IMG/VR virus record: IMGVR_UViG_638341087_000014 | Span: 1-34,255 of that record | Strand: one strand, 5' to 3' | Source of the DNA: a virus | Taxonomy: Duplodnaviria > Heunggongvirae > Uroviricota > Caudoviricetes | Length of the DNA: 34,255 bases | Shown: positions 2,000-7,348 of the stretch, in pieces | Position numbering within the stretch: the stretch's first letter is position 1 | Layout of the letters: every line of letters begins with the position of its first letter | The notes under the pieces: model-generated | The model's input: only the letters and a program-made list of their open reading frames with translations | Databases searched by the model: none | Told to the model about the DNA's origin: nothing | Position numbers and translations under genes: made by a program

Positions 2000-2359
2000 A
2001 TGCGTATAGAGTTTGTTTTGCCTTACCCGCCAACGGTGAACACCTACTGGCGACGTCGTGGCAGTACATATTTTGTATCAAAAGCCGGTGAGCGTTATCG
2101 CCGTGATGTGGCGCTCATTGTTCGCCAGCAGCGACTGAGATTAAACCTGTCCGGAAGGCTGGCAATAAAAATTACTGCAGAGCCACCGGATAAGCGCCGC
2201 CGTGACCTGGACAATATTCTGAAAGCACCACTGGATGCGTTGACGCATGCGGGGTTGCTTATCGACGACGAGCAGTTTGATGAAATCAATATTGTGCGCG
2301 GTCAGGTCGTTCCTGGTGGTCGGTTGGGCGTGAAGATTTACAAAATTGAAAGTGAGTGA
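2000..2359 (+). CDS. rusA: Holliday junction resolvase RusA
   Basis: 119 aa; RusA hallmarks (PPTVNTYWRRRG, DKRRRDLDNILKAPLDALTHAGLLIDDEQ); AAAGAGG before the ATG; sits immediately upstream of the Q-like gene as in lambdoid nin regions. Confidence 0.9.
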   Translation: MRIEFVLPYPPTVNTYWRRRGSTYFVSKAGERYRRDVALIVRQQRLRLNLSGRLAIKITAEPPDKRRRDLDNILKAPLDALTHAGLLIDDEQFDEINIVRGQVVPGGRLGVKIYKIESE

Positions 2360-2367
2360 GCGTAAAT

Positions 2368-2922
2368 ATGATATACCCGGAAATTACAGGCAAAAGCGGT
2401 GAGCATTTACGCCTGAAAACGCTGGAAAGTGTCTGGCTCCAGGGGAAACTGCGTATGTGGGGGCGTTGGTCGTATATTGGCGGCGGTAAGACGGGAAATA
2501 TGTTCAACCAATTACTGACCTCTAAAAAGCTGACAAAAACGGCAATTAACGAGGCGCTCCGGAGGATGAAAAAAGCGGGTCTGGACAAACCTGAACTTGA
2601 GGCTTTTTTGCGGGATATGATCAACGGCAATCAAAAAAGCTGGCTGGCACATTGTACCGATTCAGAGGCGTTAATAATCGACAGGGTTATTGGTGAAGCC
2701 CTGGCCGGTTATCCCGGGCTGCTCAATGTCCTGAGTCAGCGTTATGTGGGGCGGGGGATGACTAAGCGCAAAATGGCTGAACTGCTGAATGATGCACACC
2801 CGGAATGGAGTTTAAGAACCTGTGAAAGACGCATTGAGCATTGGCTAAAGGTGGCAGAATTTATTTTGTACAAACCAATGGTTATGGCTTTTTGTATAGA
2901 GAAAAAAGTTATTGCTTTTTGA
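2368..2922 (+). CDS. Putative late-gene antiterminator (Q-like), assigned mainly by position
   Basis: About 184 aa, directly after rusA and directly before a strong intrinsic terminator, the lambdoid Q/pR'/tR' arrangement. I do not confidently recognise the family; GTG at 2356 is an alternative start. Confidence 0.5.
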   Translation: MIYPEITGKSGEHLRLKTLESVWLQGKLRMWGRWSYIGGGKTGNMFNQLLTSKKLTKTAINEALRRMKKAGLDKPELEAFLRDMINGNQKSWLAHCTDSEALIIDRVIGEALAGYPGLLNVLSQRYVGRGMTKRKMAELLNDAHPEWSLRTCERRIEHWLKVAEFILYKPMVMAFCIEKKVIAF

Positions 2923-2999
2923 CGTAAAAACTGCTTCAATGCCGGTACGCTTCGCAAAGCTGTACCGCGAGGCGAATAGCAGACATGGACATTTGAAAG

Positions 3000-3025
3000 A
3001 GCCCGCTTTTTGCGGGTTTTTTTTT
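3000..3025 (+). terminator. tR'-like intrinsic terminator downstream of the Q-like gene
   Basis: GCCCGC-TTTTT-GCGGG stem-loop followed by a 9-T run, about 80 bp after the Q-like stop. Confidence 0.6.
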
Positions 3026-3148: not shown

Positions 3149-3346
3149 ATGCTAAAACAGCAGGATATGACCGAAACTGCCAGAGTGGTGTTTAATGAAT
3201 TAAGCGTCACCGAACCGGCGACCGTCGGGGAAATTGCGCAGAATACGTACCTTTCACGCGAACGCTGCCAGTTAATACTGACTCAGCTTGTTATGGCGGG
3301 TCTGGCAGATTATCAGTTCGGTTGTTACAGACGCCTTCCGCAGTGA
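3149..3346 (+). CDS. Small hypothetical protein (65 aa), possible helix-turn-helix
   Basis: ATG at 3149 preceded by AAAGGAAAAAAG; translation MLKQQDMTETARVVFNELSVTEPATVGEIAQNTYLSRERCQLILTQLVMAGLADYQFGCYRRLPQ; the stop lies inside a terminator hairpin. Confidence 0.4.
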   Translation: MLKQQDMTETARVVFNELSVTEPATVGEIAQNTYLSRERCQLILTQLVMAGLADYQFGCYRRLPQ

Positions 3347-3357
3347 AGGCTTTTTTA
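3333..3357 (+). terminator. Intrinsic terminator
   Basis: GCCTTC-CGCAGT-GAAGGC stem-loop followed by TTTTTTATTT. Confidence 0.5.
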
Positions 3358-3496: not shown

Positions 3497-4543
3497 ATGG
3501 CTAATACTGTAAAAATATCCAGTTGTGAGTTAATCAACGCTGATTGCCTGGAATTTATCCAGACTTTACCGGAAAACTCTGTCGATCTGATAGTCACAGA
3601 CCCGCCATACTTTAAAGTGAAGCCCGAGGGCTGGGATAACCAGTGGAAGGGCGACGATGATTACCTGAAATGGCTGGATCAGTGTCTGGCGCAATTCTGG
3701 CGGGTACTGAAACCTGCCGGAAGTCTCTACCTGTTCTGTGGTCATCGCCTGGCATCTGATACCGAAATCATGATGCGTGAGCGCTTTAATGTGCTGAACC
3801 ACATTATCTGGGCGAAGCCGTCCGGACGCTGGAACGGATGCAACAAGGAAAGCCTGCGGGCGTATTTCCCGGCAACAGAGCGCATTCTGTTTGCTGAACA
3901 TTATCAGGGGCCCTACCAGCCCAAAAATGACGGCTATGTGGCACAGGGGCGCAAGCTTAAACAGCACGTCATGGCCCCGCTGATTTCTTACTTTCGTGAT
4001 GCGCGTGAATCACTGGGAATAACGTCAAAACAGATAGCGGAAGCCACCGGAAAGAAAAATATGGCTTCGCACTGGTTTGGTGCCAGTCAGTGGCAGTTAC
4101 CGAACGAAGCTGATTACAGAAAACTGCAGGCATTGTTTGCGCGTGTTACAGCAGAAAAGCATCAGCGCGGGGAACTGGAAAAGCCACACCACCAGCTGGT
4201 CAGCGCATACAGTGAACTGAACCGTCAATACGCCAGCCTGCTGGAAGAGTACAAATCTTTGCGGCGTTATTTTTCCGTATCAGCTGCCGTTCCGTATACG
4301 GATGTCTGGACGCACAGGCCTGTGCAGTATTATCCGGGCAAACATCCCTGTGAAAAACCGGCGGATATGTTGCGGCAGATAATTGAGGCCAGCAGTCGCC
4401 CCGGTGATTTGGTTGCTGATTTTTTTATGGGGTCAGGTTCCACAATAAAGGCAGCATTGTCACTGGAGCGTCGGGCTATTGGTGTGGAACTGGATGAAGG
4501 GCGATTTAATCAGACTGTAACTGAAATAAAAAATATCTGTTAA
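3497..4543 (+). CDS. DNA methyltransferase, beta-class N6-adenine/N4-cytosine type (orphan, no restriction partner in window)
   Basis: 348 aa; N-terminal DPPY motif (LIVTDPPYF) and C-terminal FxGxG AdoMet motif (DFFMGSGST): motif IV before motif I. Confidence 0.85.
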   Translation: MANTVKISSCELINADCLEFIQTLPENSVDLIVTDPPYFKVKPEGWDNQWKGDDDYLKWLDQCLAQFWRVLKPAGSLYLFCGHRLASDTEIMMRERFNVLNHIIWAKPSGRWNGCNKESLRAYFPATERILFAEHYQGPYQPKNDGYVAQGRKLKQHVMAPLISYFRDARESLGITSKQIAEATGKKNMASHWFGASQWQLPNEADYRKLQALFARVTAEKHQRGELEKPHHQLVSAYSELNRQYASLLEEYKSLRRYFSVSAAVPYTDVWTHRPVQYYPGKHPCEKPADMLRQIIEASSRPGDLVADFFMGSGSTIKAALSLERRAIGVELDEGRFNQTVTEIKNIC

Positions 4544-4623
4544 TTGTGCATGGTGTTATTTCTGATAATTCCGGAATAATAAAAATATATATGTATATTT
4601 ACAATTGCTGACGAGCATTTTTA

Positions 4624-4651
4624 TTGAAAGCGTCCGGGTTATTCGTATTAT
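4624..4651 (+). promoter_or_regulatory. Candidate sigma70 promoter for the tRNA cluster
   Basis: TTGAAA (4624-4629), 16-bp spacer, TATTAT (4646-4651), about 30 bp upstream of the first tRNA. Confidence 0.3.
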
Positions 4652-4683
4652 TGTGCCGCGTCAGAGCAATGATGCAATGGACA

Positions 4684-4760
4684 GGCCCTTTAGCTCAGTT
4701 GGTCAGAGCGAGCGACTCATAATCGCCAGGTCGCTGGTTCAAGTCCAGCAAGGGCCACCA
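4684..4760 (+). tRNA. tRNA with CAU anticodon, ileX-like (tRNA-Ile2, lysidine type), often auto-annotated as tRNA-Met
   Basis: 77 nt cloverleaf folded by hand: acceptor GGCCCTT/AAGGGCC, T-arm GCTGG-TTCAAGT-CCAGC, anticodon loop CTCATAA, 3' CCA encoded. Confidence 0.8.
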
Positions 4761-4761
4761 G

Positions 4762-4838
4762 CCGCCACTAGCTCATCCGGATAGAGCATCAACCTTCTAA
4801 GTTGATGGTGCGAGGTTCGAGTCCTCGGTGGCGGGCCA
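4762..4838 (+). tRNA. tRNA-Arg (anticodon UCU)
   Basis: 77 nt: acceptor CCGCCAC/GTGGCGG, anticodon stem-loop TCAAC-CTTCTAA-GTTGA, T-arm CGAGG-TTCGAGT-CCTCG, CCA encoded. 5' end could shift by 1 nt. Confidence 0.8.
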
Positions 4839-4840
4839 GT

Positions 4841-4916
<76 letters not shown>

Positions 4917-4919
4917 TAT

Positions 4920-4994
<75 letters not shown>

Positions 4995-5246
4995 GAGCGA
5001 GATAGGTAGTTTTTTGGCACTGACACATTTTATGTAGGGCGTTTTTCCTGACTCCTTACCTCGCCCTGTACTGTAATGAGTGATATCGGTTGCAGTACCA
5101 GTGCTGTTTTTTACGCCACCGGAATGGTGCATTATTGGTAGAGATTTGCAATGTCTCTGGCAGGGGCCGGTGATGCATCATCCCGATGTTGTAAACATCG
5201 CTCAGATAACGTTGAAATCAATCAAACCCAGGAAATACATCTTTAA

Positions 5247-5270
5247 CCGCCGCACCAGGCGGTTTTTTTT
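5247..5270 (+). terminator. Intrinsic terminator downstream of the tRNA cluster
   Basis: CCGCC-GCACCA-GGCGG stem-loop followed by an 8-T run. Confidence 0.55.
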
Positions 5271-5646
5271 ATTCTTAATTCGAAGAAAAAGAAAACACGG
5301 ACATTGATAATGTCCGCGTGGCAATGCCATGTAAGTTAGCGATGAATATGGCGCAAAAAAAAGCGCGGCCGTCGGATTAACGCCGCGGGACAAAGTCCGT
5401 GAAGAATCATAAGCATCTGTCTCCTCCGGGAGACGAGTTGATATTACTAAGCTTTAAAAATGGTTTAAATCCTCAGATTAACCTTAATTTTCGGTAAGTC
5501 TTATTTCATTTCTTCGCGCCACGCCCGGCGCACATCAAAAAACCACAGAGCCTTTCAGGGGTGAGCTTACGGGATGGTCAGTGTGACTTTCTCTGTGGGC
5601 TGGTCACCCCCGGGCGCAGGCTCACCCACTAAAAGGAAAAGTCACG

Positions 5647-6072
5647 ATGTTTGGTATTTTCAAAAAGAAAACCCGCAAGGCCATTACCGAAGTGAAGAAG
5701 ATGGAGAACCGCGACGCAGTGGAGGCGACCGTCTGGGGCGCGTATTCCATTGCATATGCTGACGGCACCTGCGATGCGAAAGAAATCGCTGTGCTGGAGA
5801 AAACCATTGCAGCACTTCCTGCTTTTGCGCCGTTCTCGGGTGAGATTGCACAAATGAGTGCAAATATCCGCGCCCGTTATGAAGCGTCGCCGCGCTCTGC
5901 CAATGCTGAAGCCCTTCGCCAGCTGGCTGATGTTGCCGGTACTGATGATGCAGTTAATGTACTGTGCCTGTGTCTGGATATCGCAGACCAGGATGGCATT
6001 GGTCCGGATGAAGAAGCGCAGCTCAAGAAAATTGCTCAGGCGCTGCAGTTACCGCTGGAGCAGTACCTGTGA
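5647..6072 (+). CDS. TerB-like (tellurite-resistance TerB family) domain protein, 141 aa
   Basis: Pattern resembling TerB (two helical repeats with conserved AxxDG...EE/DEE, e.g. SIAYADGTCDAKEIAVLEK and LDIADQDGIGPDEEAQLKKIAQAL); AAAAGGAAAAG before ATG 5647. Family call from remembered pattern, not a search. Confidence 0.6.
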   Translation: MFGIFKKKTRKAITEVKKMENRDAVEATVWGAYSIAYADGTCDAKEIAVLEKTIAALPAFAPFSGEIAQMSANIRARYEASPRSANAEALRQLADVAGTDDAVNVLCLCLDIADQDGIGPDEEAQLKKIAQALQLPLEQYL

Positions 6073-6221
6073 AAAGTGCGCGCCTTGTGCTGGCTGCCAT
6101 CCTGCTGTTTCTGGTAGTGGCGGTGGATTTCACCGGACGGCTGATGTCGGTGCTGGCAGATGGTGTGCTGGTGGCGATGGCGCTGGTCGTGCTCCGGCCT
6201 TTACTGCGTAAATCTGAATAA
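6069..6221 (+). CDS. Candidate small membrane protein (50 aa, two hydrophobic segments), start overlapping the TerB-like stop (GTGA)
   Basis: Translation from GTG 6069: MKSARLVLAAILLFLVVAVDFTGRLMSVLADGVLVAMALVVLRPLLRKSE; below the 60-aa cut-off of the ORF track; ends just before a hairpin and terminator. Confidence 0.3.
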   Translation: MKSARLVLAAILLFLVVAVDFTGRLMSVLADGVLVAMALVVLRPLLRKSE

Positions 6222-6269
6222 CACCACACAAAAGGCATCTGCGGGTGCCTTTAACGGGGTGTTTTTTAC

Positions 6270-6296
6270 GGGCCGCTGGTGGCCCTTTTTTATTTA
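6270..6296 (+). terminator. Intrinsic terminator immediately upstream of the lysis genes
   Basis: GGGCC-GCTGGT-GGCCC stem-loop followed by TTTTTTTATTT; the holin ribosome-binding site follows directly. Confidence 0.6.
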
Positions 6297-6310
6297 CAGG
6301 AGAAAAAAGT

Positions 6311-6703
6311 ATGTCTGAACCCTTATCCGGTTCCGGCACGGCTGCGGCGCTCGGTGGGGCGACGGTGTACGGGCTGTTTACCGGAACGGATTTCGGGATT
6401 GTGTTTGGTGCGTTCGCCGGGGCGTTATTTGTGGCAACGATGCCGCAGGCGCTTTCAGCCTGGCGTGTGGCGGCGCATTTTCTGGTGTCGTTCATTATCG
6501 GCGTGCTGGGCGCAGAGGTTCTGGCATCCTGGCTGGTAAAGCATACAGAGTTTGACGGTGCACCTGTCGACGCATTGTGTGCAGTACTGGTGTCAGTGGT
6601 GTCGGTGAAGATTCTCTCGTTCATCCACCAGCAGGATATTGCATCGCTGGTGTCCGGCCTGTTCTCCCGCCTGCGGGGTGGAGGAGGCGGCAATGTTAAG
6701 TAA
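6311..6703 (+). CDS. Putative holin (three predicted TM segments)
   Basis: 130 aa, AGGAGA before ATG 6311, three hydrophobic helices, first gene of a cassette ending in an endolysin. Confidence 0.55.
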   Translation: MSEPLSGSGTAAALGGATVYGLFTGTDFGIVFGAFAGALFVATMPQALSAWRVAAHFLVSFIIGVLGAEVLASWLVKHTEFDGAPVDALCAVLVSVVSVKILSFIHQQDIASLVSGLFSRLRGGGGGNVK

Positions 6704-6968
6704 CCTTCCCGGATTACTGAATGTGGCGTTATGCACGGTTATCGTGCTGACGCTCTTTTTTTATCGTCGCCGTGATTCCAGGCATAAACCGCTGATGTCA
6801 TGGCTGGCCTGGTTGCTGATGCTGCTGTATGCCTTTGCGCCCCTCAGCTATCTGTGTGGTCGCCCGTTAGCAACGGGCTGGCTGGAAGTGTTTTTTAATC
6901 TGTTGTTCTGCGTGCTGGTAATACGCGCACGCGGGAACGTCGCAAGAATCTTTCCATTGTTGAGGTGA
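6693..6968 (+). CDS. Putative second holin / holin-associated membrane protein
   Basis: 91 aa, three hydrophobic segments, GGAGGAGG before ATG 6693, overlaps the previous gene by 11 nt, directly upstream of the endolysin. Confidence 0.45.
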   Translation: MLSNLPGLLNVALCTVIVLTLFFYRRRDSRHKPLMSWLAWLLMLLYAFAPLSYLCGRPLATGWLEVFFNLLFCVLVIRARGNVARIFPLLR

Positions 6969-6970
6969 AT

Positions 6971-7348
6971 ATGTCGGGTAAATTCAGATTTAGTCGTCGC
7001 AGTGAAAAAAATCTGGAGGGCGTTAAACCACAGCTGGTTGCTGTCGTTCGCCGTGCGCTGGAGCTGACGGAGGTTGATTTCGGTATTACGGAAGGGCTGC
7101 GCACGAAAGAACGCCAGAAACAGCTGGTCGCGGAAGGGAAAAGCCAGACCATGAACAGCCGCCACCTGACCGGTGATGCGGTGGATGTTGTTGCCTGGGT
7201 TGGCAGCCAGGTGTCATGGGACTGGCCTCTGTACGAGAAAATCGCGCAGGCATTTAAGCAGGCTGCCGCAGAGCTGGGAACCGCCATCGAATGGGGCGGG
7301 GACTGGAAAACACTGAAAGACGGGCCTCACTTTCAGTTGAAACGCTGA
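6971..7348 (+). CDS. Endolysin, peptidase M15 family (L-alanyl-D-glutamate peptidase type)
   Basis: 125 aa; zinc-peptidase motifs SRHLTGDAVD and GGDWKTLKDGPHFQ; GAGGTG before ATG 6971. Confidence 0.8.
   Translation: MSGKFRFSRRSEKNLEGVKPQLVAVVRRALELTEVDFGITEGLRTKERQKQLVAEGKSQTMNSRHLTGDAVDVVAWVGSQVSWDWPLYEKIAQAFKQAAAELGTAIEWGGDWKTLKDGPHFQLKR

Follow-up and report, generated by a model that had tools for sequence, protein, structure and literature searches.

The window analysed here is the whole 34,255-nucleotide stretch of the IMG/VR virus record IMGVR_UViG_638341087_000014. Its positions 5516-6291 hold, with near certainty, a copy of an accessory cassette that is mobile and widespread among phages, composed of a structured leader, a TerB-family gene (tciA), a coupled membrane-peptide gene (tciB), and a terminator, the two genes being homologous to tciA-tciB of phage P1. 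The gene pair is not new; a sequence-only reading of the window had offered the pairing as one not known to be described, and this does not stand, as the pair is already named tciA-tciB(-tciC) in P1, is annotated in GenBank and RefSeq and by PGAP, is represented by dedicated Pfam and PHROG families, and is covered in the literature (PMC6799933, PMC9603915). The novel lead is the leader, a common and strongly constrained RNA that is absent from Rfam and is predicted to be capable of forming a pseudoknot and of occluding the ribosome-binding site of phage accessory genes; it is probably a functional cis-acting RNA. Related loci were drawn from reference genomes and viral contigs (98 loci, 97 with a complete tciA). 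The elements of the cassette, together with its upstream bracket, are as follows:

5245-5270 (+): intrinsic terminator 3′ of the tRNA genes, the upstream bracket of the cassette (7-bp stem, five GC pairs, T8; terminator scan)
5516-5646 (+): structured RNA leader (comparative covariation)
5647-6072 (+): tciA, 141 aa (Pfam TerB, phrog_632)
6069-6221 (+): tciB, 50 aa (DUF3927, phrog_1470)
6232-6251 and 6270-6291 (+): hairpin and intrinsic terminator at the 3′ end of the cassette (terminator scan)

Gene content and distribution of the cassette

The best annotated relative is P1, with 79.5% DNA identity over tciA and amino acid identities of 86% for TciA and 52% for TciB. At least 688 of 5426 complete Escherichia coli genomes match window positions 5000-6300, with the pair annotated by PGAP, and the RefSeq names are ‘tellurite resistance TerB family protein’ and ‘DUF3927 family protein’; tciAB is among the commonest uncharacterised cargo units of enterobacterial phages, in the slot that carries Shiga toxin in Stx phages. 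The P1 tciABC genes and the window share gene order, overlapping stop and start codons (TGATG in P1, GTGA in the window), adjacent phage tRNAs, and an accessory, non-essential character; however, P1 has a third peptide gene, tciC, lacks a structured leader, and carries the genes in the ban operon rather than in a Q-dependent late operon. No tciC was found in the window, where a hairpin and terminator follow tciB, and the gene is confined to P1-like loci; a hairpin and T-run lie directly 3′ of tciB in most of the divergent loci too.

In the literature, tciA and tciB have been described as morons ‘in the tRNAs region’ and as possible fitness genes (PMC6799933), and a ‘tciABC operon’ has been named that is missing from about half of the P1-subgroup-1 phage-plasmids (PMC9603915). 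All three genes were non-essential for P1 by CRISPR interference (CRISPRi) (PMC10695390), TciA peptides were found in P1 virion preparations (PMC9024508), and tciA/B/C are present in P1vir lytic transcriptomes (bioRxiv 10.64898/2025.12.28.696737). The P1 ‘tci’ annotation includes ‘inhibition of cell division’, by homology only.

Some records place the cassette in unexpected hosts. DNA of ‘Actinobacillus phage vB_Apl-pPE4’ (PP818812.1, L002) is 95-99% identical to E. coli prophage DNA in this region, and TciA copies 87-96% identical occur in records labelled as a Bacillota metagenome-assembled genome, Pseudomonas lundensis, and Kocuria sabuli (genome_contigs loci L005, L011, and L018); these labels look like contamination or misassignment.

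The TerB-family gene placed at 5647-6072 by the sequence-only reading was corroborated by profile and by predicted fold. TciA scored 32.4 bits against Pfam TerB (PF05099; cutoff 24.4, E = 1.2e-7) and was matched end to end by phrog_632, ‘tellurite resistance’ (residues 1-141, E = 4e-65), and an AlphaFold2 model built from 62 homologues (six helices, pLDDT 87.9, pTM 0.81) had the TerB-like PDB entries 2h5n and 2ou3 as its best solved-structure matches in a fold search. TciA thereby shares profile and fold with the TerB of terZABCDE clusters, but it belongs to a stand-alone subfamily of ∼141 aa without TerC, TerD, TerE, or TerZ neighbours; its representatives form only 175 clusters among 1.84 billion proteins, nearly all of them stand-alone and 140-150 aa long. 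TciA is acidic (pI 4.8); its basic N-terminal tail (MFGIFKKKTRK) was modelled with low confidence, and the protein has two DG...E motifs (39-46 and 114-123) and invariant Cys42, Cys107, and Cys109. Purifying selection on tciA is very strong (median dN/dS 0.047, synonymous sites saturated at dS ∼1.5), and TciA identity among related loci is 68-100%. A PDB sequence search with TciA returned insignificant matches to PNPase and histone, which were not taken as homologues, and the NCBIfam DjlA-type match was likewise insignificant (E = 0.06, 12.9 bits; cutoff 162).

A second TciA class of 142-143 aa, present at L189, L130, L198, L209, L134, L143, and L205, is 40-44% identical to the window protein, with the same leader in front and an overlapping TciB behind (44-53% identical); the O157:H7 gene in the equivalent position (L225:4627-5222) encodes 143 aa. 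Leader and gene have recombined independently. The N-terminally extended forms of TciA (P0004, P0007, and P0048; 165 aa) result from the gain or loss of one base in the A/T runs where tciA begins.

The 50-codon open reading frame (ORF) at 6069-6221, proposed to start with a GTG that overlaps the TerB stop, was confirmed. It lies directly 3′ of tciA in 96 of the 97 loci with a complete tciA, the exception (L074) being truncated by rearrangement, and every junction overlaps. In the window, the GTG start overlaps the TGA stop of tciA as GTGA; this type, or TTGA (once), was found in 90 loci besides the window, and TAATG or TGATG in six. The two overlapping types are interchangeable, and both fit translational coupling. 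TciB matched Pfam DUF3927 (PF13064; 53.5 bits, cutoff 25, E = 2.4e-14) and phrog_1470, ‘TciB-like’ (E = 2.5e-24), and 209 homologous clusters were found. The peptide is basic (pI 10.8) and hydrophobic (GRAVY 1.4), with basic ends and conserved DFT[GS][RK], LADG, and WP motifs. It diverges much faster than TciA (31-98% against 68-100% identity), and selection on tciB is weaker than on tciA but still clear (dN/dS 0.31). The short length, the GTG start, and the lack of a separate Shine-Dalgarno sequence could suggest an untranslated chance ORF; this reading is effectively refuted by the presence in 96 of 97 loci, the overlap kept in two forms, and the dN/dS value, and the profile matches, the homologous clusters, and motifs kept throughout the identity range also speak against it. 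On sequence grounds, TciB is the obligatory, co-translated partner of TciA.

The leader as a candidate regulatory RNA

The structured leader of 650 bp proposed from the sequence alone holds for its last ∼130 nt (5516-5646), which are folded and conserved, but not for the rest, which is mosaic spacer. In a coverage profile this block was the only part of the spacer common to 86-89 of the 98 loci, against 11-35 further upstream, and in most relatives an intrinsic terminator lies immediately 5′ of it. A pattern scan of viral contigs yielded ∼79 distinct leader versions. The helices are:

5516-5520/5527-5531: small hairpin
5551-5555/5632-5636: helix P1, the base of the long hairpin, in which CCUUU pairs with the Shine-Dalgarno AAAGG
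5558-5566/5620-5627: helix P2, invariant
within the long hairpin: inner helices P3 and P4, with changing sequence and kept pairing
5543-5550/5591-5598: helix A, between the apical loop (5583-5598) and its 5′ flank
5583-5590/5638-5645: helix F, between the apical loop and the spacer from Shine-Dalgarno to AUG

When 82 distinct sequences were aligned with the covariance model, 95.3% of the cells of the nested helices were paired; both partners had changed in 17 of 32 pairs, whereas shuffles gave 5.8 ± 1.4 and slid controls 5-9. This alignment was fitted to the model and so favours the structure. Helices A and F are absent from the model, so that their alignment was not fitted to them, and 8 of their 16 pairs showed changes in both partners (shuffles, 2.5 ± 1.2; slid controls, 2-4). 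The most divergent leaders swap helix F as a whole, from GUGACU:AGUCAC to UUCGUC:GACGAA, UUACGUC:GACGUAA, or UUGCGUC:GACGUAA, and the G-U pairs of the leader fit the + strand only. Rfam 15 gave no match in 5000-5646 (E ≤ 1), save a chance match to a miRNA model at 5107-5198 (27.5 bits against a threshold of 100).

Three other models of the leader were rejected. The first, an H-type pseudoknot GGGTGAGCT:GGCTCACCC crossing helix A together with a long-range CGCCCGG:CCGGGCG pairing, had one covarying pair in 44 close relatives and was replaced by the nested hairpin after divergent leaders were added. A minus-strand small RNA ending at the T-run opposite 5537-5542 folded slightly better (z -2.6 against -2.0), but no promoter was found for it and its G-U pairs would become C-A mismatches. 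A coding role was dropped because the 62-aa ORF at 5574-5762 was seen only as frameshift fusions (P0004 type).

The covariance model placed the leader directly 5′ of tciA-like genes in 87 loci, and by BLAST the leader family is present in 1261 of 5426 complete E. coli genomes (23%, O157:H7 included), at 2693 places. Leader identity is 65-98% while synonymous sites of tciA are saturated; at L205 the leader is 97.7% identical and tciA 58% (nucleotide). Weaker related leaders (29-65 bits) precede other late cargo, namely KilA-N genes, an antirepressor gene of O157:H7, and genes for 246-262-aa proteins, and a 48-bit copy precedes tciA in the Erwinia jumbo phage Caitlin. Weaker copies of this kind lie downstream of the lysis genes in the same prophages (L002:6928-7065, L225:8922-9063, L007:7481-7599, L008:9368-9486, L173:1252-1369(-), and L199:13536-13677), with the KilA-N, antirepressor, or 246-262-aa gene directly 3′ of them, and these share the small hairpin, AGAGYCUUUCA, a long GAGCC...GGCUC hairpin, and CUAAAAGG, followed after 5-10 nt by AUG; no second leader copy was found in the window.

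Among Shine-Dalgarno-occluding leaders that are opened by processing are the lambda N leader, those at the RNase III sites of T7, and the inert mRNAs of the type I toxins hok and tisB. The present leader resembles these in its long interrupted hairpin, whose base includes the Shine-Dalgarno sequence, and in its position within a polycistronic phage transcript; however, it has no sequence or Rfam relation to them and has extra covarying helices between loop and flanks, so that the resemblance would be functional, not familial.

A different view is that the block is conserved as DNA, as a recombination linker for cargo swaps or as an insertion target, with no RNA role. Mosaic joints at both ends of the leader would fit such a linker, as would its occurrence before two TciA classes and once before a TAXI binding protein, and the presence of ISEc20 inside the leader in PPompW prophages. 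On the other side stand the compensatory changes in six helices, with type-9 leaders replacing the sequence fully and keeping the pairing; the G-U pairs that work on the + strand only; and a pairing that covers Shine-Dalgarno and spacer at a fixed distance from the AUG, whatever gene follows. We regard a DNA role in place of an RNA role as unlikely, although the linker and RNA readings of the leader are not exclusive. The insertion element itself (IS110 family) lies right after ...CCACAGAGCCTTTCGGGGG in L224 (PPompW_132418, 3499-4997), and was seen in a set of PPompW and Stx2a-associated prophages, where the remainder of the leader is lost, as is the cargo. It was not accepted as proof of a specific target site, since the 3′ half of the leader is gone after the element.

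The TAXI association takes more than one form. In a viral contig (L200:4754-5884), the leader precedes a gene whose 281-aa product has a signal peptide and is of the TAXI/TRAP solute-receptor type, and a 59-aa TciB-like membrane ORF overlaps the stop of this gene; in Caitlin (L226, 1199-2830), the order is tRNA-Cys, leader, tciA, tciB, and TAXI protein. This suggests a recurrent link between TciB and TAXI proteins.

A reading of the leader as a translational brake, relieved by processing or by another trigger, is a plausible proposal that falls at or somewhat below even confidence. With similar reserve, the leader may be the founding member of an undescribed phage cis-regulatory RNA family that gates translation of accessory genes (tciAB, KilA-N, antirepressor-type, and others) within transcripts of lytic growth, in phages as different as lambdoid prophages and an Erwinia jumbo phage. 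The apical loop would act as a double pseudoknot or a switch, and the RNA would respond to processing, to a ligand, or to some factor of the phage or the host. Such a leader may be the means by which phages silence accessory genes that could do harm when a transcript reads through them; if it is a regulatory RNA family, the TerB/TciB module would serve as a membrane device put to use under certain conditions and not as a ‘resistance’ gene expressed constitutively.

Genomic slot, expression, and proposed action

The cassette lies between Q with its tRNAs and the lysis genes, an insertion slot with variable cargo in related phages, and the proposal that this is the cargo slot of Shiga toxin was upheld by related prophages. 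Window positions 6128-6300 match the Stx2e phage P27 just upstream of the P27 holin, and part of the spacer matches an LT-IIb prophage, positions 5355-5537 being 85% identical to an unannotated part of the fragment KU052038. The same slot holds stx2e in P27 and extra genes in L004, and in O157:H7 prophages the order is Q, tRNA-Ile, tRNA-Arg, TerB, DUF3927, a SASA family (nanS-p-type) esterase, and holin. The cassette resembles the stx, LT-II, and nanS-p morons in its position between Q and phage tRNAs on one side and the holin on the other, with flanking DNA shared with P27 and the LT-IIb prophage; classical morons, however, carry their own promoter, whereas none was detected for the cassette in the consensus scan and its translation is apparently gated by the leader. 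The bracketing terminators of the sequence-only reading were recovered as intrinsic-terminator-like sites at 5245-5270 and 6270-6291, the latter being the cassette’s own.

This position raises the possibility of a lysis-timing accessory, an antiholin or holin modulator specific to the downstream lysis cassette. The pair lies immediately 5′ of two holin genes in the window and in most lambdoid loci, and TciB is a small membrane peptide. The lysis genes, however, are not adjacent in P1, in the early-left contexts, or in Caitlin; the holins belong to unrelated families (Phage_holin_8 here, class II in O157:H7, with the esterase gene between); and TciB matched no holin or antiholin family in Pfam or PHROG, its only matches being DUF3927 and phrog_1470. 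Such a role is accordingly very improbable.

No sigma-70-like site was found on the + strand at 5270-5646 in a consensus scan, which a weak local promoter could escape, and read-through by Q-modified polymerase is thus the most economical route of expression from the 5245-5270 terminator into tciA. In this window, expression is probably from pR′ by Q-modified polymerase. A candidate sigma-54 promoter in CTGGTCACCCCCGGGC (GG-N10-GC match) was rejected, as its spacing varies by indels and the GG is lost among relatives. Expression exclusively late and under Q, as first proposed, is consistent with the window but not with the pair at large: Enterobacter and Yersinia prophages carry tciA-tciB between the CI repressor and kil/int, in early-left operons; P1 carries it in the C1-controlled ban operon; and in the lytic Erwinia jumbo phage Caitlin (L226) the pair follows tRNA-Cys near the start of the genome. 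Common to all these positions would be expression during lytic growth, which argues against a simple role in lysogenic conversion, and we infer that the module belongs to the lytic programme. The pair adjoins phage tRNAs in three unrelated phage types, namely lambdoid late regions (64 of 98 loci), P1 (flanked by tRNAs upstream and downstream, L001 2116-3776), and the Erwinia jumbo phage (L226 1123-1198); tRNA adjacency as a universal feature of tciAB was rejected, as it fails in the early-left prophage contexts.

A lysogenic-conversion moron, with a resting prophage expressing tciAB and so making its host resistant to tellurite, oxidative stress, or colicins, draws on the TerB homology and on the link of ter operons to tellurite, phage, and colicin resistance (PMC11003894, PMC9603915), on a slot also used by Stx and LT-II toxin genes, and on the literature view of tciA and tciB as possible fitness morons (PMC6799933). 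Against it, there is no promoter-like site from the terminator at 5245-5270 to tciA, the Shine-Dalgarno sequence is buried in the leader, the TerC, TerD, and TerE partners are absent, and a strictly lytic jumbo phage carries the pair, as do early operons under repressor control. We consider conversion quite unlikely.

The preferred account, of a leader-gated module of the lytic programme, would run as follows. The cassette would be carried within lytic transcripts, here from pR′ under Q, and the basal helix and the apical-loop helix of the leader would mask both the Shine-Dalgarno sequence and the bases between it and the AUG, closing the ribosome-binding site of tciA. Once the fold was opened by processing or another trigger, tciA would be translated, and ribosomes ending tciA would restart at the overlapping GTG, so that TciB would be made in step. 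Its basic N-terminal tail, together with TciB, may then keep the acidic TciA at the inner membrane, in an echo of TerB-TerC: according to PMC11003894, which cites Turkovicova 2016, TerB interacts with the integral membrane protein TerC, whereas the partner of TciA would be a 50-aa peptide.

DjlA-type proteins hold a TerB-like helical domain at the inner membrane via a short hydrophobic anchor. TciA differs from them in having no J domain and in that its anchor would be a separate polypeptide, and it is not a member of that group. It is possible, though doubtful, that a TciA-TciB complex protects or conditions the energised inner membrane during lytic growth, excluding superinfecting phage or pore-forming colicins or guarding against premature membrane failure. 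On this account, tciAB, which laboratory plaque formation does not require, would not be a resistance factor of lysogenic conversion. Identity, expression, and action taken together, the account is our best explanation, held tentatively and a little short of even confidence.

Several points weigh against parts of it. The Pfam TerB match spans residues 11-57 of TciA only (profile positions 60-106), and no ter genes (TerC, TerD, TerE, TerZ) were found in the window, where the neighbours are tRNAs, terminators, and holins, or in the related loci inspected. The two-helix membrane peptide of the sequence-only reading survives as a hydrophobic peptide with two hydropathy stretches and the conserved DFTGR between them, but AlphaFold2 predicts TciB alone as one continuous helix (residues 2-47, pLDDT 92.9), not a hairpin. 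The sole natural TerB+DUF3927 ‘fusion’ (P0051, 196 aa) is a 1-nt frameshift of a P1-type locus at the tciA/tciB junction; both it and the N-terminal extensions of TciA are probably errors of sequencing or assembly rather than genuine domain fusions. Neither P1 nor the early-left contexts have the leader, so that tciAB as such does not require it; in the leader, the nested hairpin may alternate with helices A and F, or all of these may coexist in a single pseudoknotted fold. RNase III-type processing is a best guess for the opening step, as the long interrupted hairpin resembles such a substrate, by analogy with the lambda and T7 leaders only, and the promoter scan could have passed over a weak site. 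Neither TciA nor TciB matched any PADLOC-DB 2.0 defence model (E ≤ 1), and the literature searched holds no experiment on the function of either.

The main competing mode of action is a toxic-peptide module, in which TciB would damage membranes (for host killing, a division block, or abortive infection), TciA would modulate or neutralise it, and the leader would serve as a safety catch like type I toxin 5′ untranslated regions. An upstream protein gene overlapping a gene for a 50-aa hydrophobic basic peptide has this appearance, the ribosome-binding site is masked by the leader, relatives of which stand before KilA-N and antirepressor-type genes, and the P1 name holds ‘inhibition of cell division’, if by homology only. 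The PADLOC result argues against it, however, as does the stronger constraint on TciA than on TciB (dN/dS 0.05 against 0.31), the reverse of most antitoxin/toxin pairs; moreover, CRISPRi knock-down in P1 was without effect, though polarity would silence both genes. We regard this module as rather unlikely, if less so than the conversion and lysis-timing roles.

Neighbouring elements in the window

The late region of a lambdoid E. coli prophage surrounds the cassette, and the following elements were identified in it:

2000-2359: RusA gene
2356-2922 (+): Q-like late antiterminator gene (Pfam DUF1133, E = 1e-104; Phage_antitermQ, 29.2 bits against a cutoff of 26)
2999-3025 (+): tR′-like intrinsic terminator directly after Q (GAGCCCGC-TTTTT-GCGGG, then T9, read from the sequence)
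3149-3346: 65-codon ORF, with its own terminator at 3333-3356
3497-4543: DNA methyltransferase gene
4624-4651 (+): sigma-70-like promoter match upstream of the tRNA array (TTGAAA-16-TATTAT, 10 of 12 positions; consensus match only)
4684-4994 (+): four tRNA genes, CAT, Arg-TCT, Thr-TGT, and Gly-TCC (ARAGORN; Rfam tRNA, 58-70 bits)
6311-6703 (+): Phage_holin_8 holin gene (Pfam/PHROG, as for the next two)
about 6693 to 6968 (+): Phage_holin_3_7 holin gene
6965-7348 (+): M15 endolysin gene
after the lysis genes: Nu1/gpA-type terminase genes

The terminator scan counted nine intrinsic-terminator-like sites in the region, against 2.6 expected. On the minus strand, terminator-like hairpins were seen in the spacer at 5295-5319 (-) and ∼5350-5390 (-), with no convincing minus-strand ORF from there to tciA. 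The 65-codon ORF occupies the same place in related prophages as the ‘hypothetical protein’ WP_000917767, and its sole family match was a weak one to PADLOC SWIM_XIII (E = 0.0035). The CAT tRNA (4684-4760) was called tRNA-Met by ARAGORN and tRNA-Ile by PGAP in near-identical prophages (e.g., L003); the latter call is consistent with a lysidine-modified tRNA of the ileX/ileZ type, as in Stx phages.

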